A stretch of DNA of 63,676 nt, counting the filler, from Patellaria atrata CBS 101060 (lineage: Eukaryota), in assembly GCA_010093705.1 (NCBI GenBank). It is 17 parts of 17 records of this genome, joined end to end, with 100 filler letters (N's around TTAATTAATTAA, not from the genome) between each part and the next. Parts side by side here need not be neighbours in the genome. Positions count along the whole stretch, not along the records: positions 60,559 to 63,676 come from MU006171.1; 16 more parts are not named here. One strand, written 5' to 3'. Position 1 is the first letter of the stretch. Every line of letters starts with the position of its first letter. The notes under the pieces were generated by a model. The model made no database searches. It saw only the letters and a program-made list of their open reading frames with translations, and was not told the DNA's origin. The position numbers and the translations under genes are program-made. Positions 1,647 to 63,676 of this stretch are shown piece by piece.

Positions 1647-2678
1647 TCATACCATTGCAACATGCGCCCTGTTAACCTGTTCCGGGCTCTCCGGGTTCTC
1701 GGGAGGTTGAAACCGCTGAGACTCGATATCATTGAAGTCCTGGCCCGGGTTGACGGTCTCATAATCCAACCACTTCATCAGACGGTAAAAGGTAAAGGCG
1801 AGGAGAACGCCGAGGGTAGGGCCGATCCAGTAGATCCAGTGATAGCCGGGGAAAGAGCCGAGGATGACGGCGGGACCGAAGGAGCGGGCGGGATTAAGGG
1901 AGCCACCGGTGAAGTAGACGCCTGAGTTGTGTTATTAGACGATATGGTATGATGAGAGGAGGAGAGGAGGAAGGAGTTTACCAGCGAGTTCGGCAACGAA
2001 GAGAGCGAGACCGATACCGACCGGGGCGAGAAAAGTCCCCTTGTGCTTCTCGACTGCGAGCATATAGATCATGATCATCAGTTCTGCTGTGAGGAACATC
2101 TCGAGGAAACAGCCTCGGGAGATTGATGTGCCGGGTGATAGGGTTGTGGCTACGGCGAGGGGCCCGGGGAGAATGGCTTGGACGATTCCTGCGGCACAGA
2201 TGCCTGCGACTATTTGGGCGATCATGCAACCTACCATACGGATGGCGTTGACAGCACCCACGAGGTAAAGTCCCAATGTTACCTGTGTAGCTGTCAGAAA
2301 AGGGTAGGTAGAATATGTTGTATACTTGATGCTTACCGCGGGGTTGAATAATCCACCACTAACTCTGTAGAAGATCCAGACATTGCAAGCTAAAGAGAAG
2401 CCAAATGCTAGGCTAATGTATAACAGGGCGGCAGCATTTGGTCCTAGAGCTACTGTATCCGCACTTGAAGGTCCTGATGAGGCTGATGCCGAAGCATTTG
2501 CAACTTGTGTGGCAGTAAATGCAAAGAATAGAAACATGAACGTTCCGCAGAACTCAGCAAGTATAGCAGTCCCCTCATTCCGGATCTTGTTTGGAACTCG
2601 TCTCTTCGGTTGGCTACGACTCGCATGAGCACGCCTTGTATGACCATTTGGGACTTCTCCTCTTTCCTTCGAAGGCAT
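1647..2678 (-). CDS. Aquaporin (MIP family)
   Basis: [13 protein letters not shown], first NPA (SGGLFNPA) and second NPA ([15 protein letters not shown]), HWIYWIGP. Introns 2283-2336 and 1922-1981. The 3' end could extend if GTATGA at the stop codon is a donor. Confidence 0.93.
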
Positions 2679-39787: not shown

Positions 39788-41538
39788 TCCACCACGCAGT
39801 AGTATTTTTTGAAGCTGTAACTTGTAGTCGATTCTATAGAGTCTAATTAATCTCTGCCGCATGTACGAGAGTTGTGTCCTGCGTTGCCGCAGGTTCTGCA
39901 GCGCTGCTGAGTCGCCGCGTCGCCTCTTGCGCGCTGCCTATTCTGACGCGTTTCCTCTCTAATCTGCTCATCAACGTTAATTTGAGCTATTAATTCTGCG
40001 CCTTCTACCTTTGTTAAGCATCCTTGAAGCTGTAAACGCTTCTTCTGGCGCTTCTTACGTCGTGTTGCAGCCTCATTTGCTCTGCGTAGGTTGGCGACTT
40101 CTAACTGTAAAATGACTCCATGGTGTATCATCAATTCTGCACGTTTTAATAGGCGGTCAAGTGACTTAATGATAGATGTAGGAGAACTATTCTAATGCCT
40201 CTTAATCCTATTACGAATAAAGGCAGTTTGAGAGTCTAGTTCCTGCGCGTTGCATGGTGTTTTTGACTCACATTCTTGTAGTTCTGGTGGTGACGGCGTA
40301 CGCAGCTTGATCTCCAGTTTTGAGACTACTATCTCTGAGTCTAGAGGAAGTAGACCTGCTCCTGCGAATCCTGCGCGGATATTCTTCTCCGTAATTGATT
40401 CCTGGTAGGCTTGTTTAAAGATTGGGAGAAACTCGAGCTTAGTGATGTGGTTAATAGAGCTGCGTATCAGATCCTCTACACCACGCCCATACGCCTTCTT
40501 CAATGGTGAGAAACAGGCGACATCTAGAGGTTGTAGGAGGTGAGATGAATGAGCTGGCATACAAAGCGTAGTAATACTGTTCTGCGCACAGAGCTCTCGA
40601 AACTCCATAGACTCATGGCTCTCATGGCCATCAAGAATTAATAGCTGGCGCGAACCAAGACGTCTATCTTTTGTATGCTTAATAAAGTGCTTCAACCACT
40701 CTACGCCAAGCTTATTTGTAGTCCAGCCGTTCTCAGATAGTGCGATTACCCAATCCTCAGGAATATCTGTGCCTTCGTACCAAGTAGATAGATGATAGGT
40801 GCCGCTGAAGATGATGAATGGTGGAATTGCCCAACCTTGCGCGTTGATAGCTTGAATTACTGTAACCCACTCACGGTTGCCTGGCTGGATAGATTTTGGT
40901 CGATTACGTCTCTCTGCGCCAGTTACAACTTTACTAGTCGCTATTACACCCATCTGAAAGCCTGTCTCATCAAAATTGTAGATGTCTGCTTTAGTGATGC
41001 CGTGCTTCTCAATTGTACGCGCTACAAGCTGGAACCAGCTACTAATAGTCTCAGGATCTTCACATTGAGCTCTCTTATAGTCGTACTTACGATTTAGGCG
41101 CGTTTTTAGCTCTGGTGTTCGGCGTATAAAGTTCTCTGGCCACTTGACTCCAACTACTCCAGCGCCACGCGTAGTAAGCAGTTGATCCGCCATATCTCGT
41201 ACAGCGCGAAGCTGAGATGGAAATCCACATGAGTTAAGCTCAAGAATGTAGTTTACAATAGCCTCCTCTTCTAACTTAGTGAGCCTCTTTGAGTTGGGCT
41301 CGCAATCGCGTCGTATAGAGATTCCAGCGCGTCGTGACCTTAGTGTTGATTCAGGGACGTCAAACGCCATAGCAGCTTGGCGCATACTTTTAAATTGATT
41401 GGAATTAAGAGCTGATAGAGCTAGGTTGGTTCTGCCTTCTTTTTGAGCTAATTGAGTACTGCGTTGTTGATTCATGGTGGGTTGATTGTAGGAGAACTAG
41501 TTTTGGTGAGAACTGCGCAGCTCGCTTGTCGTTTACGT
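39788..41538 (-). mobile_element. Fot1/pogo (Tc1-mariner superfamily) DNA transposon
   Basis: Transposase ORF; terminus ...GTTTACGT (41538) followed by TA. The other end is lost in the gap. Confidence 0.92.
39847..41475 (-). pseudogene. Fot1-type DDE transposase with one premature stop
   Basis: HTH (AAMAFDVPESTLRSR), CENP-B-like region, YNFDETGF, LILDGHESH, LQPLDVACF, C-terminal CRTCGNAGHNSRTC knuckle. TAG at 40192-40194 (CAG>TAG) splits the in-frame ORFs. Confidence 0.92.
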
Positions 41539-43345: not shown

Positions 43346-46300
43346 CCCTTGATCTCAGAAATCCAGGATAGGTTATAAGGAGTAAAATGGTTTACGAAAT
43401 TCGATATCCGAGACGGTTACTATCGAATCAGAATGAAAGAAGGCGAAGAATGGAAGATAGCTATGAGAACGAGGTTCGGACTATACGAATATATAGTGAT
43501 GCCGTTCGGCTTAACTAACGCCCTAGTAACGTTCTAAGCAGTGATTAATTATGCACTAAGAGAGTATTTAGACGTATTTATAACTGCTTACCTAGATGAT
43601 ATGCTAGTGTACACGAACGGAACACTCGAAGAGCATAGGGAGCACGTGAAGAAAGTATTGACGAAACTACGAGAAAAGAGACTCCTAGTACACCCCGAAA
43701 AATGTGAATTCCATGTCAAAGAAACGGAATTCCTAGGCTTCATCGTTACCACTGAAGGTATAAGAGTAGACCCGAAGAAAATAGCCGTGGTTAAGGACTG
43801 GCCCACTCTAAAAAGTGTAAAAGACGTATAATCGTTCTTAGGCTTCGCGAACTACTATAGAAAGTTCATCTAGGGGTACTCGAAGGTAATAACGCCGCTA
43901 TTAGAGTTAATAAAGAAGGAAAATGCCTTCGTTTAGACAGAGAAGGTATAGGAAGCATTCGACGAACTTAAGAAGAAGTTCACCACAGCACCTATCTTAG
44001 TCATGTTTGACCTAGAGAAATCGATAGTGCTAGAGACTAACGCATCTAATTATGCACTAGGTGCATATATAAGTCAGCTAGATAAGAAAGGACGATTATA
44101 TCCAGTAGCCTTTCATTCGCGAAAGTTCACGGCCGCAGAGCTGAACTACGATGTGCACGACAAGGAATTGTTAGCGATTGTCGACGCATTCGAACAGTGG
44201 AGGTCATACCTTGAAGGACCCAAGTACACTGTAAAAGTTTGGTCAGATCACCAAAACCTGACAAACTTCCTCACGATAAAGAAGTTGAATCGAAGACAAG
44301 TAAGGTGGGCGGAAACACTCGCGTCCTTTAACTTCAAAATATTTCATAGACTAGGAGTCGAAAACAAACTAGCCGATGCTATAAGTAGAAGATCCGACTA
44401 CCTAGAAGGAACGAAACCGGTACATGACGCGGTACTGAAGAAAGAAAACGACGCGATCACCTACAATCAGCCAAGATTAGCTGCAATGCTAATAATCGAA
44501 TCCACGAGAGAACAACAAATTCGTGATGCCTATTAGAAGGACAGTATGATAGAGGAGTTCCGAAGGGGTAGCGACCCTAGGGCAACATAAACAGCTCAAG
44601 GAATATGGCTATACGACGGGCTCGTATATATGCCAACGACACTGCGAAAGACCCTTACCAAAGAGATCCACGAAGCACCAGCGCATGGTCACCAGGGCAT
44701 TGACAAAACCTTGGAAAGGATCCTAAGGAATTACTATTTCCCGGGGGTAAGAAGTACAGTGAAGCAAGTCATCTCAGAGTGTAATAACTACGCACGGAAT
44801 AAGAGTGCAAAACACGCACCCTACGGACAAATGCAACACATTGAGCCACCAAAGCGGGCATGGGACTTAATAACTATGGACTTCATCACAAGTCTACCAG
44901 GATCCAAAGATCCAGCAATAGGAGTAGAGTATAACGCGATATTGGTTATCGTGGAGCGACTAACAAAGTTCACCTACTTCATACCAGCAAAGACAACGAT
45001 GACAGCACCATAAGTAGCAGCATTAGTGATGAAAACAGTGCTAGCAAATCACTAGATGCCGAGAGAGATTATCTCAGATAGAGATAAACTGTTTAAATTA
45101 GCGTTTTGGCAGACTCTAGTATAGAGTTTAGGGGCGAACTATAAGCTATCAACGAGCTTCCACCCATAAACAGATGGCTAAACTGAGAGAATGAATTAAT
45201 CTCTAGAGCAATACTTACGCAATTATGTGAATTACCAGCAGAACAACTGGGTAGAACTGCTACCAATGGCACAATTCGCACACAACAGCGCGAAATCCGA
45301 TACCACGAAGGTTTCACCCTTCTATGCGAACTACGGTTTCGAACCAGAAGCATATCGTGAGCCGAGAACAATTCAGAGTATTTCACAAGAAGCAGCGTTA
45401 AAAGTCGAGCAAATCAAGGAATTGCACGCATAGCTATCACGAGACATAGCTTTCCAGACGATAAGAGCTACGAAGTACAGTAACCAGCATAGGTCGCTAG
45501 AACCGACCTTTAAAAAGGGGGACAAAGTTTACTTGTTACAGAAAAACCTCAAAACAAAACGACCTAACAAGAAACTAGACCACAAGAAAATCGGCCCTTT
45601 TAAAATCAAACAGGTCAAAGGAAAAGTCAATTACGAGTTGGAATTACCATAAGGAATGAAGATACACCCAGTTTTTCATGTATCACTCCTAGAACCAGCA
45701 CATACTAACGCTAAACTCTAAACACGACCCATAGAACTCGAGGAAGAAGATATCTACGAGGTAGAACGAATCTTGGACCTACAATAAGTAGACGGTCAGT
45801 ACAAGTACTTAGTAAAATGGAAAGGCTACGGACACGTAGATAACACGTGGGAACCACTCAAGCATTTGACGAACTGCGATCAGAAACTTGAGCAGTTTCA
45901 CCGACAAAACCAGGGAATTCCAGACCCTCGAGGACAGAGAAATCCAAATCAGACCAACCAGAAAGAGATACAGCGGAAGGAGAAACGGGGGCGCTTAAAG
46001 AAGCTTGCTGTTTTTCAGCTTCTCGCTCCAAAGCCTCAAGCTCCTCGATGGAACCAAGCTCACGACGAGACATCTCCGCCTCCTTGCGTTCGAGCAAAAG
46101 GAGTTTACGACGGAGTCGTCGGGAATGAGCACGAGCAGCACGAATCGCTTCGTGTTAAGCACGAACTGCTTCCTGTTGAAGACGCATCGCCTCTAGAACC
46201 GCCTCTTCACGCAAACGGGCAGTCTCGTCCTCAGCCCTCTCCGCAGCGTCAAGCTCAGACCGAAGCTTCGCTTTTAAAGCGTCAAGCTTGTCCCAATCCT

Positions 46301-46789
46301 TTTGTGTCACCACGAGATCGCATTTGGTGCCACGAGCAAGACATTCGGAACAGAAACCTGAAGGGATATCGACAATGCAAGAACGGGAGGAACGACGACA
46401 AGAAGAACAAGGAGTCGGCATGGGACGACCGTGTAGAGCAACACGGGCAGCGTAGCGTCGACGACGAACTGGACGAGGTTCAGCTTTTGGCATCTCGGAA
46501 GAAAGGGAAGAGAGGTGCGTACGACTTGACAGATGGGCGACACGTCTATTTTATACCCAAGCAAAAGAAACAAACTCTTGGGACAAGAGTCGTGAAGGGG
46601 GAGGATAGTGTTACGGCCACAAGTTGTAGAAGCATGGAGATCACGAGTGAGGGGAAGAAGGGGCACCACTCGGGGAAACTACGGATGGAACCTGTAGACG
46701 ACGGGTCACGTGACTTGGACGTTTGGACGTTTGGACGTTTCGGTCGTAGGAGGAACGACCAGACGACCGGACGACCAGGACGACCGGGA
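43346..46789 (+). mobile_element. Ty3/Gypsy chromovirus LTR retrotransposon, copy 1 (partial, RIP-mutated): RT-RNaseH-integrase-chromodomain, antisense gene, PPT, 3' LTR
   Basis: YLDD RT, RNase H (YDVHDKELLAIV), HHCC, TMDFIT, GPF, chromodomain YEVERIL...YLVKWKGY...NTWEP. PPT GAAGGGGGAGGATAG 46594-46608, LTR starts TGTTAC at 46609. Many TAA/TAG stops. Confidence 0.97.
45858..46493 (-). pseudogene. Antisense Zn(II)2Cys6/coiled-coil gene of retrotransposon copy 1 (one RIP-type stop)
   Basis: CSSCRRSSRSCIVDIPSGFCSECLARGTKC. TAA at 46155-46157, after which the frame continues to ...VSDRSSSNA*. Confidence 0.82.
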
Positions 46790-49564: not shown

Positions 49565-50605
49565 GTTGGCCTCTCGTTCTTTAAGAATGGTGGAATCAAA
49601 TCAAAAGGAGCGGTGAGAGAGAGTGTGTTTTGATTGAAGTCAGTGGAGCAAATGAAGGGAGAACACGACTCTTGAAGCCAGGAGCTTTCTGCTTCCTGCG
49701 GTTCAAACCGAGTTGGAAGGGGGGAGGGGGGGATACAAGGGATAGATAGGTAGACGCGGCGGGTAGAGGAGTTGTATCGATTACGGACTTGGAGCTAAGG
49801 GCGGGGAGGGTGTTTTGGCTGGTCAACCTGACTGAAAGACTCCTCAGGTGCCCCATCTTTTCAGCATCTTTCCAAGGTTTGAGGCCCCCAAAGAAGGAGG
49901 GTTGGATATTCTCAAGTGACAAATTAGAAAGGCGAAAGAAAGGCGAAAGAAAGGCTTGGTGACGGTTTGATGAGCATTCTCGCACTTCTGGCTTCGTTTC
50001 ACTTCATCCGCAGAACAGGGGTTCGCGCTACGCTCACAAGTTACAAGTCCATCCAACTCTCAAGATGGACAAATCCCCAAACAACGCGCCAGAACGTTCT
50101 GCATGAATATCCTATCCTGAGAGCAAGGTCAGCCTTTCCAGGCCCTCCGAAGAGAACAACCGCGAACCATCGTCCCAACCGAAACCCACAAACCCCTCTT
50201 TCTTTCCTCTTTCTGTTTTCCTCAGACTGCTCATTTCTTCCTTCCGTATCTCGCGTATCCTGTTTTTTGAGGAAGGAAGCGAAAAAGTGCAAAACCCCTT
50301 CCTCCTCCTCCTCCCCCTCCCCCTCCNNNNNNNNNNNNNNNNNNNNNNNNNNNNNNNNNNNNNNNNNNNNTTAATTAATTAANNNNNNNNNNNNNNNNNN
50401 NNNNNNNNNNNNNNNNNNNNNNNNNNAGCTAAATGCTCAGCTCCGACTTATCGGTTAAGTATCACCAAAACTATAACATTAGCTCACTCTTTTGATGTCA
50501 TCTCTTATTTTATATCTGACGTAGGTAGTATCGTTATGTTCGCCTTGATTTGGAGATTACGTAGCTAGGCTTCGTGACGTCAAAGGGTTAATCAATAAGG
50601 TGGTC

Positions 50606-53527
50606 TGTCATTATATAAACACTAGATAGAATCCGTAGTTGTACGGAGAAGGAAGCGACTACATTCAGTTACCCACAATCTCACAATTCTTATAGTAACT
50701 AGAGATAGTAAGCTAATCGCTTATACTACTATAATTACGATATTATCGTAATCTAGGGTTTCTAAACTAATATAATATTATCTTTTAGTTCTTATATTAG
50801 TGCTATTTTCGTTATTTTCTAAGATATAGATTTTATACTATTCTATCCGTTTTAGTATATATCTATAGTATATAATAGCTAGATAGAACCTCTCTTTTAA
50901 GAATTAAGCGATATATTCTATACATTTATAGATCTAGTTTATTTAATAGTTATAAACTTAGCCTTTATACTATTTTAAAGCTATATAACTTATTTAAATC
51001 TAATCCGTTTATACTCCTCTTTTAATCTATTATACTTATATCTTTTAACGAATAGTTAAACTATCTTCACTATTATTTATTAAACCTAAAATCTCTTATA
51101 CTATTAATTAGTTATATCGACTTTAATAAACTTCTCGTCGTCTACTATATCGTCTATCCTTTAAGAGATATCTTTAATTAGTAAGCCTAGTTCTTAGTTA
51201 TTAAAGGAAGAGCTAAATTCGATTAAATATAAAAGTATTACGATCCGGATCTCCCGTTAAAGCCGGTGTTACTATTAGGTGGAGAAATGCTATAATATAT
51301 CTAAGACTAGGTGACGACTAGGAAGACTCTAGATAGAGAGATAAGCTAGATAATAGCACTATTCTATAACGCCTATAGAGTTATCGTAAAGAAGTAAGAT
51401 TAGAAGAGAGCTAAAATAGCTAATCTATTTATATTAATTATTAATATAATATCTATAGATAATTTACCCTTAAGTGAGGATACTAAGGAATCTTACTTAT
51501 TACTTAAAAAGTTAAAAGATCGCTTTTAGCTTAATAATTAGACGGTAAGAGAAGAGGCTTATAATAAATATAAATATTATCTTTATACGGCTAAAAAGAT
51601 AAATATAGATACTTAGTATATAATCTTTTTAAATCTCTACGATAGATATATATTATATAAAGTAACTAAGTTTAGTGGAGAGTAGTTAACTAGAGATATA
51701 CTAAGCTATATCTCTAAAGCTTATCTATAGTAGATAATATTAAAAATCGTAAGTGTGGATAAAAAGCGATTCGCTAGTCTTTAAGTCGAGATTTCCGATA
51801 TAATCTCCTATTTCCGGAACTTCTATAGAGTATAAATTCTTAAAGAACTAACCGGAAGTGTTTTAACTATCTTTTAAGGCTAGTCTACTATAGAAACTAA
51901 TATTTAAACGTTAATTTCGTCGGATAAGAAATTATCTAAACCGGATACTATAAAAATTTACTTATACGAAAAGAAATACCTTTAGTCTTAATGCTAGTAT
52001 ATTAACACTAAGGTCTCTAAATCGAAAGACTACTCGGAAATAATATAATAGATAGTTAACACGAAGATTCCGGAGCTAATATTATTTGGATAGACGGCTA
52101 TCTAACGTATTAAAGCTAAAGCTAGTAAATCCGATAAAAACGATAAAAGCGATAAAAGCGACTTTAAGTAAGGAGATATTATTACTTTCGTTAGAGGAAT
52201 CGTCTTAAGGCCGGTTAGATCCGTTCTATTAACTCTCGATTTAAAGAGTAATAACTAGCTTTATAACTTTATTCTTTTAGATTTTAGATCTAGTCTTTAT
52301 ATTTATAACGATTTAGCTTAGTTTACTATCGAAAGTTATTATACGGAATAATGGATTTAAGTTGGAAAGGGAATATACTAACTCTTAATAAAGGGTAGGT
52401 GGACTATAGAAGTGGAAGGTTTTATAGAAAAACGGAATCTCTATCTAATAGAAGCTTATCTTTACCCGGATTTTAACGCCTTTATCGTCGGCTTAAAGCT
52501 AATAAAGAAGAAGCGTAGTATCTACTAAAACTATCGAAGCGATTATCTTAAATTTAGTGATAGTATTAAGATATATAAAGTTCTAGAAAAAGGTAATCAC
52601 TATCTATTAAACTATAAAGAAGTTAGTAAATCTACCGAATCTATTTTCGCGGCTTATAAGTTTACGGATTCGAGACCCCTAATTAATGTTATAACGAGAT
52701 ATTAGCACTAAATTATAGATTATACTAGTCTAGAAGCAATTTAGTATTTAATAATTAGAGTAATTAAAGTTAAAATAGATAACTGAGTATTATTTACTAT
52801 TAAGTGTAAAGTCTATATTATCTTAAAAGTAACTAAATTAGTAAGTAAACGACTACGCGGGCTAGAGAATCTAGTAACACGTATCTTTTAAAGAGTATTC
52901 TTTAATATTATCTCTTTCCCTCTTAGCTATAACGGCTATCAATATTTTAGATACTACCGAGATATTTACTCCTTCTAAATTAATCTAGAAACGTTAGTAA
53001 TAAAGCTAGCTACGAATATAAGTAATAGAAAGTACTTTAAATGGACGAAAACTTAATTTAGAGAGAAGGTTTAGATATTTTATAGTGATAACGAAACGTC
53101 CTTTAGAAAAATGCATTAATAGCTATTAGACGAGACCGGAACGATTATAGAGCCTTTAGCTCTAGATATATCGGGCTAAAACGATAATACTAAACGCTCT
53201 AAAAGGGTGATACTAACTAAAGCACGCACGTTAGCGATAGATGCTATAATTCCGTGGGAGTTATAGCTAGAAGTGGTGGTAGTAGTGGCTTATATAAGCA
53301 ATCGGACTCCCTATAAAGCTCTTAACTGGAAGACTCTTTTAAAGTTATAACCGGACGGAAGCTAGATATTAGTCACCTTAAAACGTACGGCTATAGGGCA
53401 TACGTACTCGATAAGCATATTCCATATTTATAGAAGCTCTAGCTAAGAGCTCTAATTGGTTACTTTATTGGATACGACTCTACAAATATTTACAGAATCT
53501 GGGTTCCTAGCAGGAAACGGGTGTTCC
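50606..53527 (+). mobile_element. Ty1/Copia LTR retrotransposon relic, heavily RIP-degenerated, truncated after integrase
   Basis: Very AT/TpA-rich with no ORFs. Residual translation F(H/Y)SDNETS and HLKTYG(C/Y)RAYV...IGYFIGYDSTNIYRIWVP (Copia integrase/SH3-like). Probable 5' LTR from TGTCA at 50606; LTR bounds approximate. Confidence 0.85.
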
Positions 53528-53852
53528 TAACTGCAATGCTTAAATCAGTAAATGTATAACTGATTTAAATGTGGACCGTGCGCACCTAAAGAGCAGGGGT
53601 ATTACTGATTTAAAAAACTTGCTGCAAATTAGTAAAGGGTAAATCTTCAAGTAAATGCAGATATAATTCGATAGAAAGGTAAAATCAACCTTACGCAATC
53701 AGCCGGTCAAATTAGATTTTTTATANNNNNNNNNNNNNNNNNNNNNNNNNNNNNNNNNNNNNNNNNNNNTTAATTAATTAANNNNNNNNNNNNNNNNNNN
53801 NNNNNNNNNNNNNNNNNNNNNNNNNACTAACACCCCACCCCCCTTATTTCAG

Positions 53853-54266
53853 CGCCGTCTCCCCTGGAAATCAACCCTCCAGCTTTCCCTCTCCCTCTCC
53901 CTCGTCAACCCAGCCCTCTGGTACCTCCTCGACCGCAGCACCACGGGCCTCCTCCTCTCCACCGCCATCGGCGTCCTCGGGACCTTCATCCTGCTCATCA
54001 TTAATCCTGCGCTTGTACCTTCGCCCACGGTGCCACGGGGTAATGCTACGGTTGTGTATGCGCATCCCGGGTTGGGTAAAGGGGGGAAGGGGTTGGGAAT
54101 GGGGGTGGGGGTCGGCTATGAGGGCGTCGCGATGGCGGTTTGGTTGGGGAGTGTGCTGTTTTGCAGTTGTGTTTGTTTTGGGAATATTGGGCGGAGGGTT
54201 GCCGTTATTGGGAGGGGTGTGGGGAGGGAGAGTGGGAGGGGGTACGGGGTAGGGGATAGGGGATAG
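53853..54266 (+). CDS. INSIG-family (Nsg1/2-like) membrane protein, last exon
   Basis: After CTAAC...TTTCAG: RRLPWKSTLQLSLSLSLVNPALWYLLDRSTTG...VWLGSVLFCSCVCFGNIGRR. Confidence 0.88.
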   Translation, partial: RRLPWKSTLQLSLSLSLVNPALWYLLDRSTTGLLLSTAIGVLGTFILLIINPALVPSPTVPRGNATVVYAHPGLGKGGKGLGMGVGVGYEGVAMAVWLGSVLFCSCVCFGNIGRRVAVIGRGVGRESGRGYGVGDRG

Positions 54267-60558: not shown

Positions 60559-63500
60559 ATGCCGTTCGGCTTGACCAACGCCCCAGCAACGTTCCAAGCA
60601 GTGATCAATCATGCACTGAGAGAGTATTTGGACGTATTTGTAACTGCTTACCTAGATGATGTGCTAGTGTACACGAACGGAACATTCGAAGAGCACAGGG
60701 AGCACGTGAAGAAAGTATTGACGAAACTACGAGAAAAGAGACTCCTAGTACACCCAGACAAGTGTGAATTCCATGTTAAAGAAACGGAATTCCTAGGCTT
60801 CATCGTTACCACTGAAGGCATACGAGCAGACCCAAAAAAGATAGCCGTAATCCAAGATTGGCCAACACCGAAAAACGTAAAAGATGTACAATCGTTTTTA
60901 GGTTTCGCGAACTACTATAGAAAGTTCATCCAGGGGTACTCGAAGGTAACAACGCCGCTGTCAGAGTTAACAAAGAAGGAAAATGCCTTCGTTTGGACAG
61001 AGAAGGCACAGGAAGCATTCGACGAACTTAAGAAGAAGTTCACCATAGCACCTATCTTAGTCATGTTTGACCCAGAGAAATCGATAGTGCTAGAGACTGA
61101 CGCATCTGATTATGCACTAGGTGCATGTATAAGTCAGCCAGATGAGAAAGGACGACTACACCCAGTAGCCTTTCATTCACGAAAATTCACGGCCGCAGAG
61201 CTAAACTACGACGTACACGACAAAGAATTGTTAGCAATCGTCGACGCATTCGAACAGTGGAGGTCATACCTTGAAGGACCCAAGTACACTGTAAAAGTTT
61301 GGTCAGATCACCAAAACCTGACAAACTTCCTCACAACAAAGAAGTTGAATCGAAGACAAGTAAGATGGGCAGAAACACTCGCATCTTTCAACTTCAAGAT
61401 ATTCCATAGACCAGGAGTCGAAAACAAACTAGCCGATGCTATGAGTAGAAGATCCGACTACCTAGAAGGAACGAAACCGGTACATGACGCGGTACTGAAG
61501 AAAGAAAACGACGCGATCACCTACAATCAGCCAAAATTAGCTGTAATGCTAATAATCGAATCCACGAGAGAACAACAAATTCGTGATGCCTATCAGAAGG
61601 ACAGTATGATAGAGGAGTTCCGAAAGGGTAGCGACCCTAGAGCAACACAAACAGCTCAAGGAACATGGCTATACGACGGGCTCGTATATGTGCCAATGAC
61701 ACTACGAAAGACTCTTACCAAAGAGATCCACGAAGCACCAGCACATGGTCACCAAGGCATTGACAAAACCTTAGAAAGGATCCTAAGGAACTACTACTTC
61801 CCAGGGGTAAGAAGTACAGTGAAGAAAGTCATCTCAGAGTGTAATGACTGCGCACGGAATAAAAGTGCAAAACATGCACCTTATGGACAGATGCAACACA
61901 TTGAGCCACCAAAGCGAGCATGGGACTCAATAACGATGGACTTCATCACAGGTCTACCAGGATCCAAAGATCCAGCAACAGGAGTAGAGTATGACGCGAT
62001 ATTAGTTATCGTAGAACGACTAACAAAGTTCACCTACTTCATACCAGCAAAGACAACAATGACAGCACCACAAGCAGCAGCATTAGTGATGAGGACAGTG
62101 CTAGCAAATCACCAGATGCCGAGAGAGATTATCTCAGATAGAGATAAACTATTCAAATCAGCGTTTTGGCAAACTCTAGTACAGGGTCTAGGGGTAAACC
62201 ATAAGCTATCAACGAGCTTTCACCCACAAACGGATGGCCAAACTGAGAGAATGAATCAATCTCTAGAGCAATACTTACGCAATTATGTGAATTACCAGCA
62301 GAACAACTAGGTAGAGCTACTACCAATGGCACAATTCGCACACAACAGCGCGAAATCCGATACCACGAAGGTTTCACCCTTCTATGCGAACTATGGTTTT
62401 GAACCGGAAGCATATCGTGAGCCGAGAACAGTTCAGAGCATTTCACAAGAAGCAACGTTAAAAGCAGAGCAAATCAAGGAATTGCACGCACAACTATCAC
62501 GAGACATAGCTTTCCAGACGACAAGGGCTGCGAAGTACAGTAATCAGCATAGGTCGCTGGAACCGACCTTTAAAAGGGGGGACAAAGTTTACTTGTTATA
62601 GAAAAACCTCAAAACAAAACGACCTAACAAGAAACTAGACCACAAGAAAATCGGCCCCTTTAGAATCAAACAGGTCAAAGGAAAAGTCAATTATGAGTTG
62701 GAATTACCACAAGGAATGAAGATACACCCAGTTTTCCATGTATCACTCCTAGAACCAGCACATGCTAATGCCAAACTCCAAACACGACCCACAGAACTCG
62801 AGGAAGAAGATATCTACGAGGTAGAACGAATCTTAGACCTGCAACGAGTAAATGGTCAGTACAAGTATTTAGTAAAATGGAAAGGCTACGAACACGTAGA
62901 TAACACGTGGGAACCACTCAAGCACTTGACGAACTGCGATCAGAAACTTGAACAGTTTCATCGCCAAAACCAGGGAATTCCAGACCCTCGAGGGCAGAGA
63001 AATCCAAACCAGACCAACCAGAGGGAGACACGACAGCGGAGGAAGGAGGAGCGACCGAGGAAGCTCGCTGCCCTTCGGCTGCTCGCTCCAAAGCCTCAAG
63101 TTCCTCGATGGAACCAAGCTCACGACGAGACATCTCAAATTCCTTCTCTTCAAGGGAACGAAGTTGGTTGCGGAGGCGACGCACACGAGCCTGAAGGGAT
63201 TCTTGCTCGTCCTCAGCAGCAGCTAGCTCGGAGCGAGTACGAGCCTTTAAAGCATCGAGCTTATCCCAATCCTTTTGTGTCACCACAAGATCGCATTTTG
63301 AACCACGAGCGAGACACTCAGAACAGAAACCAGAAGGAATATCGACAATACAAGAACGAGAGAAACGACGACAAGCGGAACAGGGAGTCGGCATGGGACG
63401 ACCGTGTAGAGCAACACGGGCAGCGTAACGTCGGCGGCGGACTGGACGGGGTTCAGCTTTTGGCATCTCGAAAGAAAGGAAAGAGAGGTGCGTACGACTT

Positions 63501-63676
63501 GACAGATGGGCGACACGTCTATTATATACCCAAGCAAAAGAAACAAACTCTTGGGACAAGAGTTGAGAAGGGGGAGGATAGTGTTACGGCCACAAGTTGT
63601 AGGAACATGCAGACAACGAGTGAGGGGAAGGAAGGAACACCACTCGGGAGAACTGCGGGTGAAACGAGTGATAGAG
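60559..63676 (+). mobile_element. Ty3/Gypsy chromovirus, copy 2 (partial, nearly intact)
   Basis: [13 protein letters not shown]...YLDD, RNase H, HHCC, DDE integrase, chromodomain. Only two stops (62308-62310, 62599-62601). PPT 63565-63581, LTR starts TGTTAC at 63582. Confidence 0.97.
62918..63466 (-). CDS. Retrotransposon-encoded antisense Zn(II)2Cys6 + coiled-coil protein (182 aa), intact
   Basis: MPKAEPRPVRRRRY...CSACRRFSRSCIVDIPSGFCSECLARGSKC (C-x2-C-x6-C-x8-C-x2-C-x6-C), heptad region, acidic/aromatic tail. TATATAA about 56 nt upstream. Conserved in copy 1. Confidence 0.85.
   Translation of the reverse strand: MPKAEPRPVRRRRYAARVALHGRPMPTPCSACRRFSRSCIVDIPSGFCSECLARGSKCDLVVTQKDWDKLDALKARTRSELAAAEDEQESLQARVRRLRNQLRSLEEKEFEMSRRELGSIEELEALERAAEGQRASSVAPPSSAVVSPSGWSGLDFSALEGLEFPGFGDETVQVSDRSSSSA

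Follow-up and report, generated by a model that had tools for sequence, protein, structure and literature searches.

A Ty3/Gypsy chromovirus in the genome of Patellaria atrata CBS 101060 carries a minus-strand open reading frame (ORF) which, judged from its pattern of substitution, is a real coding gene under purifying selection. The gene occupies the same place in both copies of the element analysed here and has the same layout in a metagenomic relative of 47% identity, and for this reason the sequence evidence supports that it belongs to the element and not to the insertion site. Structure models support a Zn2Cys6-like cluster in its predicted product, with a long helix behind it. We lean towards the reading that this is an accessory gene whose product would be a small nuclear dimeric protein of the Zn2Cys6 type, most likely regulating the element's own LTR.

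Organisation of the element and its antisense gene

The analysed stretch of DNA, called the window below, is 63,676 nucleotides long and consists of 17 small scaffolds separated by spacers of the form N44-TTAATTAATTAA-N44, so that the two copies of the element, A and B, lie on two separate short scaffolds. Each of these scaffolds ends inside an LTR. The coordinates of all features are collected in Table 1.

Table 1. Features of the two chromovirus copies and of the antisense gene, in window coordinates
Feature	Position	Strand	Basis or remark
Copy A pol, heavily degraded	43499..45968	+	17 in-frame TAA/TAG stops
Antisense gene, copy A	45858..46493	-	Frame kept throughout; one in-frame TAA (46155-46157); helix segment extended by 29 codons
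Copy A polypurine tract at 46594-46605, then LTR (181 nt) from 46609	46594..46789	+	
Copy B pol fragment	60559..62965	+	Pfam RVT_1, RT_RNaseH, Integrase_H2C2, rve, SH3_Tf2-1, Chromo
Chromodomain of copy B pol	62815..62964	+	Pfam Chromo 61.5-64.7 bits, residues 40-89 of the ORF starting at 62698
Antisense gene, copy B, intact (P0001)	62918..63466	-	182 codons and stop
Overlap zone, last 36 antisense codons (aromatic/acidic tail) on the pol end	62921..63028	both frames	
Long helix, residues 64-137, predicted dimer interface	63056..63277	-	AlphaFold; complex model
Six-cysteine cluster, Cys29 to Cys58	63293..63382	-	Spacing 2-6-8-2-6
N-terminal basic helix, residues 7-21	63404..63448	-	AlphaFold helix, pLDDT >90
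5' flank of antisense gene	63467..63565	-	Minus-strand TATA box 63522-63528, 56 nt upstream of ATG
Copy B polypurine tract, AGAAGGGGGAGGA	63566..63578	+	Sequence reading; abuts LTR edge (contig loose ends 63575/63578)
Copy B 3' LTR start, TGTTAC..., cut by the scaffold end	63582..63676	+	Sequence and genomic contigs

In copy B, pol runs in a single frame through the end of the reverse transcriptase, RNase H, integrase (H2C2, rve), an SH3-like domain and the chromodomain. It contains two in-frame TAG stops (62308-62310 and 62599-62601), at which copy A has TGG and CAG. Genomic contigs from two runs, probably of DNA, read G at position 62309 at full depth in X1 and X2, and C at position 62599 in the full depth of X1 and in 13883 of 15800 in X2. 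The majority of the differences between the two pol copies lie in a RIP context: an A comes directly after 50 of the 83 C<->T differences and a T directly before 32 of the 77 G<->A differences. At the 3' end the genomic contigs part from the window immediately ahead of 63575/63578, which is expected of an LTR edge. The LTR of copy A contains TTGGACGT three times (46715-46740) as well as GACGACC[AG]G repeats.

The antisense ORF, on the opposite strand to pol, is flanked by the chromodomain on one side and the polypurine tract on the other. The order pol with chromodomain, antisense ORF, purine tract and LTR is the same in copy B, in copy A and in the metagenomic relative, L001. The first-pass annotation had reported the ORF from both Gypsy copies; its location is the same in A and B, but the gene of copy A is broken by an in-frame TAA, around which the public model (P0007) splices. 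The segment encoding the helix is 87 nt longer in copy A than in copy B. The RPVRRRR start, the cysteine spacing C-x2-C-x6-C-x8-C-x2-C-x6-C and the tail WSGLDFSALEGLEFPGFGDE described earlier are all present in the 182-aa translation. Upstream of the start codon, the minus-strand TATA box reads TATATAA in B and TATAAAA in A, and the flank at 63467-63578 differs between the copies at just 5 of 112 sites, compared with a pS of 0.42 in the adjoining codons.

The pol frame is also open over the full length of the antisense ORF in both copies. Given the antisense protein, the chance of a stop-free pol frame across the gene is 0.004 in copy B and 0.11 in L001, and 85 of 92 related pols terminate within 30 residues past the chromodomain. 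A possible reason for the open pol frame is that it lets the genomic RNA avoid a long untranslated 3' part.

Selection on the antisense frame

Between copies A and B, codons 1-83 of the antisense gene have a dN/dS of 0.078 (26.5 synonymous and 8.5 non-synonymous differences), against 2.2 for the pol frame. The first-pass annotation had proposed selection on this protein and a comparison of dN/dS per frame, and the antisense value is indeed far from 1. A pol-frame extension as the selected protein is rejected by the value of 2.2 over the cluster part. In the middle part of the antisense gene dN/dS is 0.31, and in the pol gene itself 0.16. The claimed excess of third-position changes across the zinc cluster, outside RIP, is borne out as well: of the 24 differences at 63243-63466, 21 affect the third position of an antisense codon and none has the RIP signature, and the codon pairs cited for it are exact (TCC GAA TGT CTT in A versus TCT GAG TGT CTC in B; CCT TCA GGT versus CCT TCT GGT). 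Over the whole ORF, C<->T differences followed by A number 0 of 16 and G<->A differences preceded by T 3 of 38. Variants from the genomic contigs (40 of 89 rows) follow the frames in the same manner, with 6 of 7 on antisense third positions within the ORF and 23 of 33 on pol third positions within pol. This pattern indicates that the gene was retained as the element family multiplied.

The two genes overlap over the last 36 antisense codons, which on the pol side correspond to the last chromodomain helix and about 20 further codons. Here the relation is reversed, with a dN/dS of 0.025 for pol (7 synonymous, 1 non-synonymous) and of 2.4 for the antisense frame (1 synonymous, 7 non-synonymous), so that 7 of the 8 differences are synonymous in pol and non-synonymous in the antisense ORF. 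The third-position pattern changes frame near 63020-63030. This weakens the earlier suggestion that the acidic tail is an activation domain, as the A-B tail evolves as the reverse of the pol end, although a P-x-x-W motif of the tail does recur in distant members of the family (consensus of 50 members).

Architecture of the predicted protein

Near its N-terminus the protein has a basic helix that is kept in distant relatives (family consensus M-P...RR..LA), and in this region all five differences at 63428-63449 are antisense third positions. Public gene models begin at Met25, 24 codons late, and omit this helix. The general spacing rule of Zn2Cys6 clusters is C-x2-C-x6-C-x5-12-C-x2-C-x6-8-C. 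The cysteines at positions 29/32/39/48/51/58 agree with this rule (Pfam PF00172, Zn_clus). They are also retained: in 50 relatives C32, C39, C51 and C58 never vary, and conservation of C29 and C48 reaches at least 90%.

The profile and structure checks proposed by the first-pass annotation give a borderline score and a close but short fit. The Zn_clus model scores 23.0 bits in copy A and 20.0 bits in copy B around a gathering cut-off of 21, and at E<=0.01 it matches only 9 of 50 family members. The AlphaFold model of the antisense protein has a mean pLDDT of 87. Its cluster (residues 26-60) superposes on Leu3 (2er8_C) with an rmsd of 1.2 Å over 34 residues and on 1cld with 1.5 Å over 32 residues, which is the Leu3/Gal4 class, and on Pho7 with 2.0 Å over 35 residues; these are short fits with Z of 2.5-2.7. 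A Foldseek search with the model returned Zn2Cys6 DNA-binding domains in about 17 of the first 20 rows, every one at E of at least 0.15, and no row at E<=0.001. A profile search of the PDB found Put3 at E 0.24 and 0.95 below an unrelated coiled coil at E 0.0058. The Fungal_trans middle region was absent from the protein in the Pfam search.

The cluster is followed by a helix of 74 residues, whose mid-part differs in length between the copies through the 87-nt indel. In this region the genomic contigs show a joint at 63136>63246 and loose ends at 63128/63258. When the protein was modelled with itself, the complex score was 0.52, versus 0.12 for the best control. Among proteins with solved structures, 21 of 30 pairs of one chain attained that mark and 0 of 23 single chains did; for eukaryotes the numbers were 17 of 29 pairs and 0 of 30 single chains, with only 1 of 7 among pairs that had no older solved relative. 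As Zn2Cys6 dimers are already solved, the pass may reflect structures memorised by the model. At least 91% of the contacts agree between runs of the complex model, with a pLDDT of at least 77. The predicted dimer is antiparallel, all 25 best contact pairs summing to 175-183, and would set the two clusters about 80 Å apart, unlike Gal4, Put3 and Ppr1, with the reservation that the direction of coiled coils in models is unreliable. Of the Gal4 architecture claimed for the protein, the model shows a Zn2Cys6-like cluster and a long, predicted self-pairing helix behind it; the modelled antiparallel arrangement is not Gal4-like.

On an alternative reading the product is not a transcription factor. 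The gene would still be a true element gene, but the zinc cluster and the long helix of its protein would act at a different point of the life cycle, such as binding of the element's RNA or cDNA, bridging of the LTR ends, steering of integration together with the chromodomain, or blocking of host silencing. The distance between the clusters in the antiparallel model would suit such a role, as would the low number of members matched by Zn_clus and the A-B tail without antisense-frame selection. In addition, the residues between the cysteines vary family-wide; in the 50-relative alignment those between Cys2 and Cys3 differ to such an extent that a common DNA-reading surface is not evident. On the other hand, the solved structures that resemble the cluster are all DNA-binding domains, from transcription factors or from Cep3, the succession of basic residues, cluster and dimer helix is the layout of that class of transcription factors, and the direction of a helix pair is unreliable in such models. 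We regard a role of this other kind as a serious but rather unlikely alternative to a transcription factor.

Relatives and distribution

The family comprises at least 511 cluster representatives at E<=1e-3, of which 91 are found at <=1e-10, with clusters defined at 50% identity. Nearly all members are 100-250 aa long; 2 of the 150 listed exceed 260 aa, and ten longer members contain no further Pfam domain. The members are unnamed, and the protein atlas holds only Ascomycota clusters of 'hypothetical protein'. When the 50-member alignment was used for a profile word search, 13 proteins were obtained, none of them from an additional organism. The family occurs in Dothideomycetes, in lichen-associated fungi and in many soil metagenomes. 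Several near-identical members were seen in 8 of the 30 clusters that were looked up, and P. atrata has at least 6 named paralogues. Two paralogues, P0004 and P0008, have almost identical tails but disagree at 9 of the 30 positions of the cluster.

The relative L001 comes from a metagenome contig. Upstream of its ATG there follow a purine tract, TGTTAC, an LTR-like stretch and then, on the other strand, gag with a CCHC knuckle. The 614 nt from the start codon to gag presumably comprise the LTR and the leader; a primer binding site and the far LTR end were sought by eye and not placed. The gene of L001 contains an intron of 49 nt (GT..CTGAC..AG) in the antisense sense, whose removal restores a conserved Trp. 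L001 was the one relative among 594 pattern matches in the metagenome scan. Of the 55 and 513 pattern matches from scanning viral_contigs twice, and of the 64 from scanning genome_contigs, none was a relative.

These data make it extremely improbable that the ORF is an untranslated by-product of strand composition. The sense strand is A-rich and T-poor, with an AT skew of 0.27-0.30, and both strands are open, as such an origin would predict. It is refuted at the sequence level by the contrast in dN/dS between the antisense frame and the opposite one, the 511 homologues with their invariant cysteines, and the intron of L001, which restores the frame; the pLDDT of the model also argues against it. 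A chance ORF is rejected by the same family size and antisense dN/dS.

Another explanation is that we are looking mainly at a host family of small zinc-cluster proteins, of which one chromovirus lineage took up a passenger with no role in the element. LTR elements are known to transduce host sequence (PMC11963269, discussion), and some family members lie on megabase scaffolds, for example on a 1.67-Mb contig of Aureobasidium pullulans. Genomic context covers three members of the family (A, B and L001), two of which are close copies. Purifying selection nevertheless persists across many element copies, which a passenger would hardly account for in copies with an already dead pol. The same layout at 47% identity points to long co-descent of the gene with the element, near-identical paralogues occur within genomes, and the majority of members are found on contigs of about 1 kb, as repeats are. 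We therefore consider the passenger explanation improbable. The opposite extreme would be that the whole family is essentially retrotransposon-borne, and that a broad ascomycete chromovirus lineage encodes an antisense transcription factor, sometimes with an intron, which reads the repeats of its own LTR and whose cluster diversifies with the LTR, with the pol frame kept stop-free. This wider proposal is tentative, and we would put it at somewhat less than an even chance.

Comparison with known systems

The predicted protein shares with Gal4, Put3, Ppr1 and Leu3 the spacing of the six cysteines; in the models it also resembles them in the fold of the cluster and in a helix directly behind it that is predicted to pair two chains. 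It differs from them in its small size, in the missing Fungal_trans, in an extra conserved N-terminal helix, in the length and modelled antiparallel pairing of the long helix, and in being encoded by a retrotransposon. Gal4-type activators have a short parallel coiled coil after the cluster, which places two clusters side by side on DNA.

HBZ of HTLV-1 is an antisense gene; it is transcribed from the 3' LTR, exists in spliced forms and acts on viral transcription as a dimerising bZIP factor. The likeness to the Patellaria gene is in logic only, namely a minus-strand gene by the 3' LTR for a small dimer-forming protein of a DNA-binding transcription factor type. HBZ has an unrelated DNA-binding fold, belongs to an animal retrovirus and has a function shown by experiment; that of the Patellaria gene is a prediction from sequence and models. 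Antisense genes of HTLV are mentioned in PMC11963269.

A close precedent is brtn of the Botrytis element Boty (Zhao et al. 2011, Virology 417:248), an antisense gene at the same position according to the passages that cite it in PMC8365987, PMC7264820 and PMC4227169. By these descriptions, Boty too is a fungal chromodomain element of the Ty3/Gypsy type, and its extra gene, which has no known function, is encoded on the opposite strand in the interval from pol to the 3' LTR. The caveat on novelty in the first-pass annotation thus stands, in so far as an antisense gene at this position is already in print. The citing passages of the three papers make no mention of a zinc cluster in brtn, and the text supplements of PMC8365987 do not mention brtn. 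Neither Botrytis nor Sclerotinia is represented by name in the 30 family clusters looked up or in the named matches.

Plant Ty3/Gypsy elements (Grande1, RIRE2 and Retand) also have antisense ORFs between pol and the 3' LTR, with a TRP28 domain, for which a DNA-binding regulatory role was proposed by comparison with retroviral antisense genes, according to the relevant passages of PMC7264820 and PMC11963269. They are alike in position, in orientation and in a conservation comparable to that of the other genes of the element. By the description of aORF-3R in PMC7264820, the Patellaria gene is of this kind, lying inside the element, between pol and the LTR and on the opposite strand, with a pol-like conservation (0.078 and 0.31 versus 0.16). 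The plant elements, as described in these passages, belong to non-chromovirus lineages with a region of 2.9-6.6 kb between POL and the 3' LTR, and TRP28 (PF04195) is an unrelated domain; in the Patellaria element the corresponding region measures about 0.6 kb, and the antisense gene runs into pol and encodes a domain of the fungal Zn2Cys6 type. The literature searched contains no description of a fungal LTR element with a zinc-cluster gene in it, and the terms zinc, antisense and additional ORF are absent from 'LTR Retrotransposons in Fungi' (PMC3248453).

Proposed role and implications

The favoured reading, a regulator encoded by the element, can be put as follows. The minus-strand ORF is an accessory gene between the chromodomain and the polypurine tract, and its last ~36 codons overlap the pol end. 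Transcription antisense to gag-pol would start from a TATA promoter of the gene itself, immediately internal to the 3' LTR, and because the gene is antisense, relatives would be able to keep an intron in it. The product would be a small nuclear protein with a basic N-terminal helix, a binuclear cluster of the Zn2Cys6 type and a long self-pairing helix. Most likely it would bind repeats in the element's own LTR in a sequence-specific way, with TTGGACGT and the GACGACC[AG]G repeats as candidate targets, and thereby raise or damp transcription of the element. Such a retroelement-encoded regulator would be comparable in logic to HBZ. Expression as a transcript, localisation to the nucleus, binding to DNA, the choice of the LTR as target and the direction of the effect are all steps that we infer.

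The antisense genes described earlier between pol and the 3' LTR, in plants and in Boty, have no known function. The predicted fold of the Patellaria protein is recognisable as that of the main class of fungal gene switches. Together with the clear signal of purifying selection, the intron found in a relative and homologues that number in the hundreds, all unnamed, it makes the idea of a retrotransposon-borne transcription factor directly testable. Public gene models of the family are counted as host regulators of the 'Zn(2)-C6 fungal-type', which would inflate transcription factor counts in the comparative genomics of Dothideomycetes. If the family proves to be essentially retrotransposon-borne, genome annotations would be listing transposon genes by the hundred as Zn2Cys6 regulators of the host. 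Gypsy elements of this type may bring their own regulator with them.

Layout of the element

The Ty3/Gypsy chromovirus studied here carries a gene antisense to pol that is under selection, is linked to the element and encodes a zinc-cluster protein whose long helix is predicted to mediate pairing. The first-pass annotation had proposed an antisense Zn(II)2Cys6 mini-transcription factor; the observation stands with corrections, while the interpretation is only partly supported.

The window (1-63676) consists of 17 small scaffolds, from 4,254 to 3,118 bp long, with spacers of the form N44-TTAATTAATTAA-N44, so features that adjoin across a spacer are not genomic neighbours. Both reported Gypsy copies, A and B, are present, but on two separate scaffolds, whose alignment gives 92.3% over 2,581 bp and 90.1% over 423 bp, separated by a part of variable length. 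Other scaffolds hold ordinary genes (MIP channel, MDM31/32, MFS, Ysc84, ECM11 and amino-acid permease), and a DDE_1 transposase ORF at 40195-41475 on the minus strand (Pfam, 124.6 bits) indicates that the window also contains a DNA transposon. The two scaffolds at 50001-54000 have a G+C content of 30-33%, against 43-57% elsewhere in the window, and may be a RIP-degraded repeat or organelle DNA.

Features of the two Gypsy copies and of the antisense gene
Feature	Position	Strand	Remarks
Scaffold A (Gypsy copy A)	43346-46789		terminates within LTR
Scaffold B (Gypsy copy B)	60559-63676		terminates within LTR
pol, scaffold B		+	single frame: end of RT, RNase H, integrase, SH3-like domain, chromodomain
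Chromodomain, scaffold B	62815-62964	+	
Antisense ORF, copy B	62918-63466	-	uninterrupted, 182 codons
Antisense tail, last 36 codons	62921-63028		over last chromodomain helix and about 20 further pol codons
Purine tract	63566-63578		followed by TGTTAC; 3' side, beyond antisense ORF
TATA box	56 nt before ATG	-	TATATAA in B, TATAAAA in A

The ORF had been placed between the chromodomain and the polypurine tract, and this is right. Contigs from two genomic DNA runs depart from the window just before 63575/63578, which sets the LTR edge there. In copy B all the described features are found, namely the basic stretch, the six cysteines spaced 2-6-8-2-6 and the aromatic and acidic tail, and the codons quoted match the sequence exactly. 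Copy A keeps the same frame throughout, with a helix longer by 29 codons, but it has an in-frame TAA at 46155-46157. P0007, the public model of this copy, excises a very short "intron" that merely skips this stop. The public models of the family (P0002-P0008) begin at Met25 and omit a conserved N-terminal helix; five silent differences at 63428-63449, together with conservation of the helix in distant relatives, place the translation start at 63466. Between the ATG and the LTR (112 nt) A and B differ at only 5 sites, compared with 42% of the synonymous positions of the codons next to it.

Selection in two overlapping frames

Antisense third positions coincide with pol second positions, and the test of selection in the two frames is therefore clean. 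Over codons 1-83 (63218-63466) A and B differ in the antisense frame by 26.5 synonymous and 8.5 non-synonymous changes, a dN/dS of 0.078, whereas the same codons read in the pol frame give 2.2. The ORF is coding, and it is extremely improbable that it is a non-coding artefact. The reported excess of third-position differences was recovered, with 21 of the 24 differences across 63243-63466 falling at antisense third positions. The middle of the helix is looser than codons 1-83 (0.31 antisense, 0.69 pol), and pol itself has a dN/dS of 0.16.

Among the 40 of 89 variant rows covered from the two genomic DNA runs compared with B, third positions account for 23/33 variants in pol and, in the antisense frame, for 6/7 in the ORF. 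This bias points to an element family that multiplied with both pol and the antisense gene retained. Since selection among transposon copies acts mainly through the success of the element, we infer from these sequences that the gene serves the element itself.

The 5' half of the antisense gene has a dS of 0.61, about three times that of pol (0.16-0.22), and in the paralogues P0004 and P0008 9 of 30 cluster positions depart from P0001, the copy B protein, while the tail is almost identical. The high divergence of the cluster half would reflect either mosaic copies or a fast-evolving cluster. As had been claimed for the zinc cluster, the differences there are not of the RIP type, and across the ORF almost none are (0/16 C<->T and 3/38 G<->A transitions in RIP context). 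In pol the counts are 50/83 C<->T followed by A and 32/77 G<->A preceded by T. Copy A pol (43499-45968) shows RIP-type changes throughout and has 17 in-frame TAA/TAG stops; it is an oddity that it was struck by RIP and the adjoining antisense gene (45858-46493) spared.

Copy B pol has TAG stops at 62308-62310 and 62599-62601, where TGG and CAG stand in copy A. In the contigs of both DNA runs all depth supports G at 62309; at 62599, C has all of the depth in run X1 and 13883 of 15800 in X2. Copies with both codons open thus exist, and the two stops look private to copy B.

The acidic and aromatic tail is present as described, but between A and B it evolves as the end of pol. Seven of its eight differences are silent in pol but change the antisense protein (dN/dS 0.025 and 2.4, respectively), so between these copies the tail is a passive reverse reading of pol, and the pattern of selection switches frame near 63020-63030. 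A P-x-x-W motif is retained at the tail position in a 50-member alignment, often with a second aromatic beside acidic residues, and the tail may be functional at greater evolutionary depth.

Beyond the chromodomain the pol frame is free of stops to the end of both scaffolds (62966-63676 and 45866-46789, both plus strand). In B this amounts to at least 237 codons, crossing the whole antisense gene into the LTR. In L001, a metagenome contig with a relative of the gene, the pol frame (1941-2537, minus strand) meets its first stop 64 nt past the antisense ATG. When synonymous codons were permuted with the antisense protein fixed, 0.4% of trials for B, where the mean was 3.8 stops, and 11% of those for L001 left the pol frame without a stop. 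Related pol proteins end within 30 residues of the chromodomain in 85 of 92 cases. A tail of at least 100 residues occurs in one, P0195 (source name Pseudogymnoascus destructans), with 144 residues, which may hide another antisense gene. From these comparisons the open frame looks maintained, but not as a conserved protein; one speculation is that it is kept so that the genomic RNA avoids a long untranslated 3' part.

Linkage to the element and family

L001 provides the sole independent context, with 47% identity to the antisense gene. Its gene has a 49 nt intron (2201-2249, GTCCGT...CTGAC...TAG), removal of which restores the frame and brings the conserved Trp into place. An intron survives in a retroelement only when antisense to the copied RNA, so this one agrees with transcription of the antisense gene on its own. 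Some 90-100 nt upstream of the ATG, a pyrimidine tract precedes GTAACA; read on the other strand, this is a purine tract before TGTTAC, an arrangement also present in the window. After about 500 nt of repeat-rich DNA comes gag (Retrotrans_gag, CCHC knuckle) on the opposite strand. This order would arise if the assembler had joined the 3' inner end of an LTR element via the LTR to its 5' inner end.

An exhaustive HMMER search gave 511 cluster representatives at E<=1e-3, of which 91 reach <=1e-10 and 1 reaches <=1e-30. The 150 of these 511 listed are 71 to 388 aa long, with only 2 above 260 aa. No other Pfam domain was found in ten of the longer members, so there is no sign in them of the usual middle region of host Zn2Cys6 factors. 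Most of the 30 clusters examined derive from metagenome or raw-run assembly contigs about 1 kb long, and 8 of the 30 hold several near-identical members. All named members are "hypothetical" or "Zn(2)-C6 fungal-type domain-containing" (Watsoniomyces obsoletus (3), Aureobasidium pullulans, Acidomyces richmondensis and Zopfia rhizophila (2)), and Patellaria atrata has at least six named paralogues.

Fold and predicted self-pairing of the protein

The zinc cluster is borderline for Pfam Zn_clus (23.0 bits in copy A and 20.0 in copy B, cut-off 21), which matches only 9 of 50 relatives at E<=0.01. The AlphaFold model, built with 50 relatives in the alignment, is confident (mean pLDDT 87), with a helix at 7-21, the cluster region at 26-60 and a single helix at 64-137. 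Foldseek gave no match at E<=0.001, and about 17 of its top 20 rows are Zn2Cys6 DNA-binding domains (Put3, Pho7, Leu3, Gal4, Hap1, Ppr1, Cep3 and AlcR). The modelled cluster superposes on Leu3 (1.2 A, 34 residues) and on 1cld (1.5 A, 32 residues), with a Z of only 2.5-2.7 because the domain is tiny. We read the region as a divergent Zn2Cys6 cluster.

Modelling of two copies supports self-pairing via residues 59-119 (score 0.52; best of 3 controls 0.12), with contact agreement between runs of at least 91% and pLDDT of at least 77. The score mark is reached by 21/30 proteins with a solved structure of two identical chains and 0/23 solved as single chains, and on eukaryotes by 17/29 pairs and 0/30 single chains, but by only 1/7 of those without an older solved relative. 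As dimers of the Zn2Cys6 class are already solved, the score may have been reached from the memory of the model. The coiled coils of Gal4, Put3 and Ppr1 are parallel, whereas here each of the 25 best contact pairs adds up to 175-183 and the pairing is modelled as antiparallel, a direction not to be leaned on.

Possible function and relation to known systems

Antisense transcription would start at the TATA promoter adjoining the 3' LTR, and the protein dimer would bind repeats in the LTR, tuning transcription of the element. On balance we consider this probable. Candidate binding sites are short repeats in the copy A LTR (46715-46789), with TTGGACGT and GACGACC[AG]G three times each, and in L001 (1700-1842), where seven or more GTGATCGCA/TGCGATCAC motifs occur in both orientations. 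That the gene acts elsewhere in the life cycle of the element is, in our view, rather unlikely, and that it is a host gene carried as a passenger seems improbable to us.

An antisense gene between pol and the 3' LTR is a kind of feature already known. In plants, such genes are described in elements that include Grande1, RIRE2 and Retand; the TRP28 domain of Retand has a predicted DNA-binding function, and a regulatory role was proposed by analogy with the antisense genes of HTLV (PMC7264820; PMC11963269). The fungal precedent is brtn of Boty, and the passages citing it make no mention of a zinc cluster (PMC8365987, PMC7264820, PMC4227169). Full-text literature searches and a term search of "LTR Retrotransposons in Fungi" gave no description of a Zn2Cys6 gene within a fungal LTR element. 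The literature searched has no account of the domain, the family size, the intron, the pol overlap or the stop-free pol frame. If brtn proves to be homologous, the antisense gene would be a new member alongside it, with the first fold assignment.
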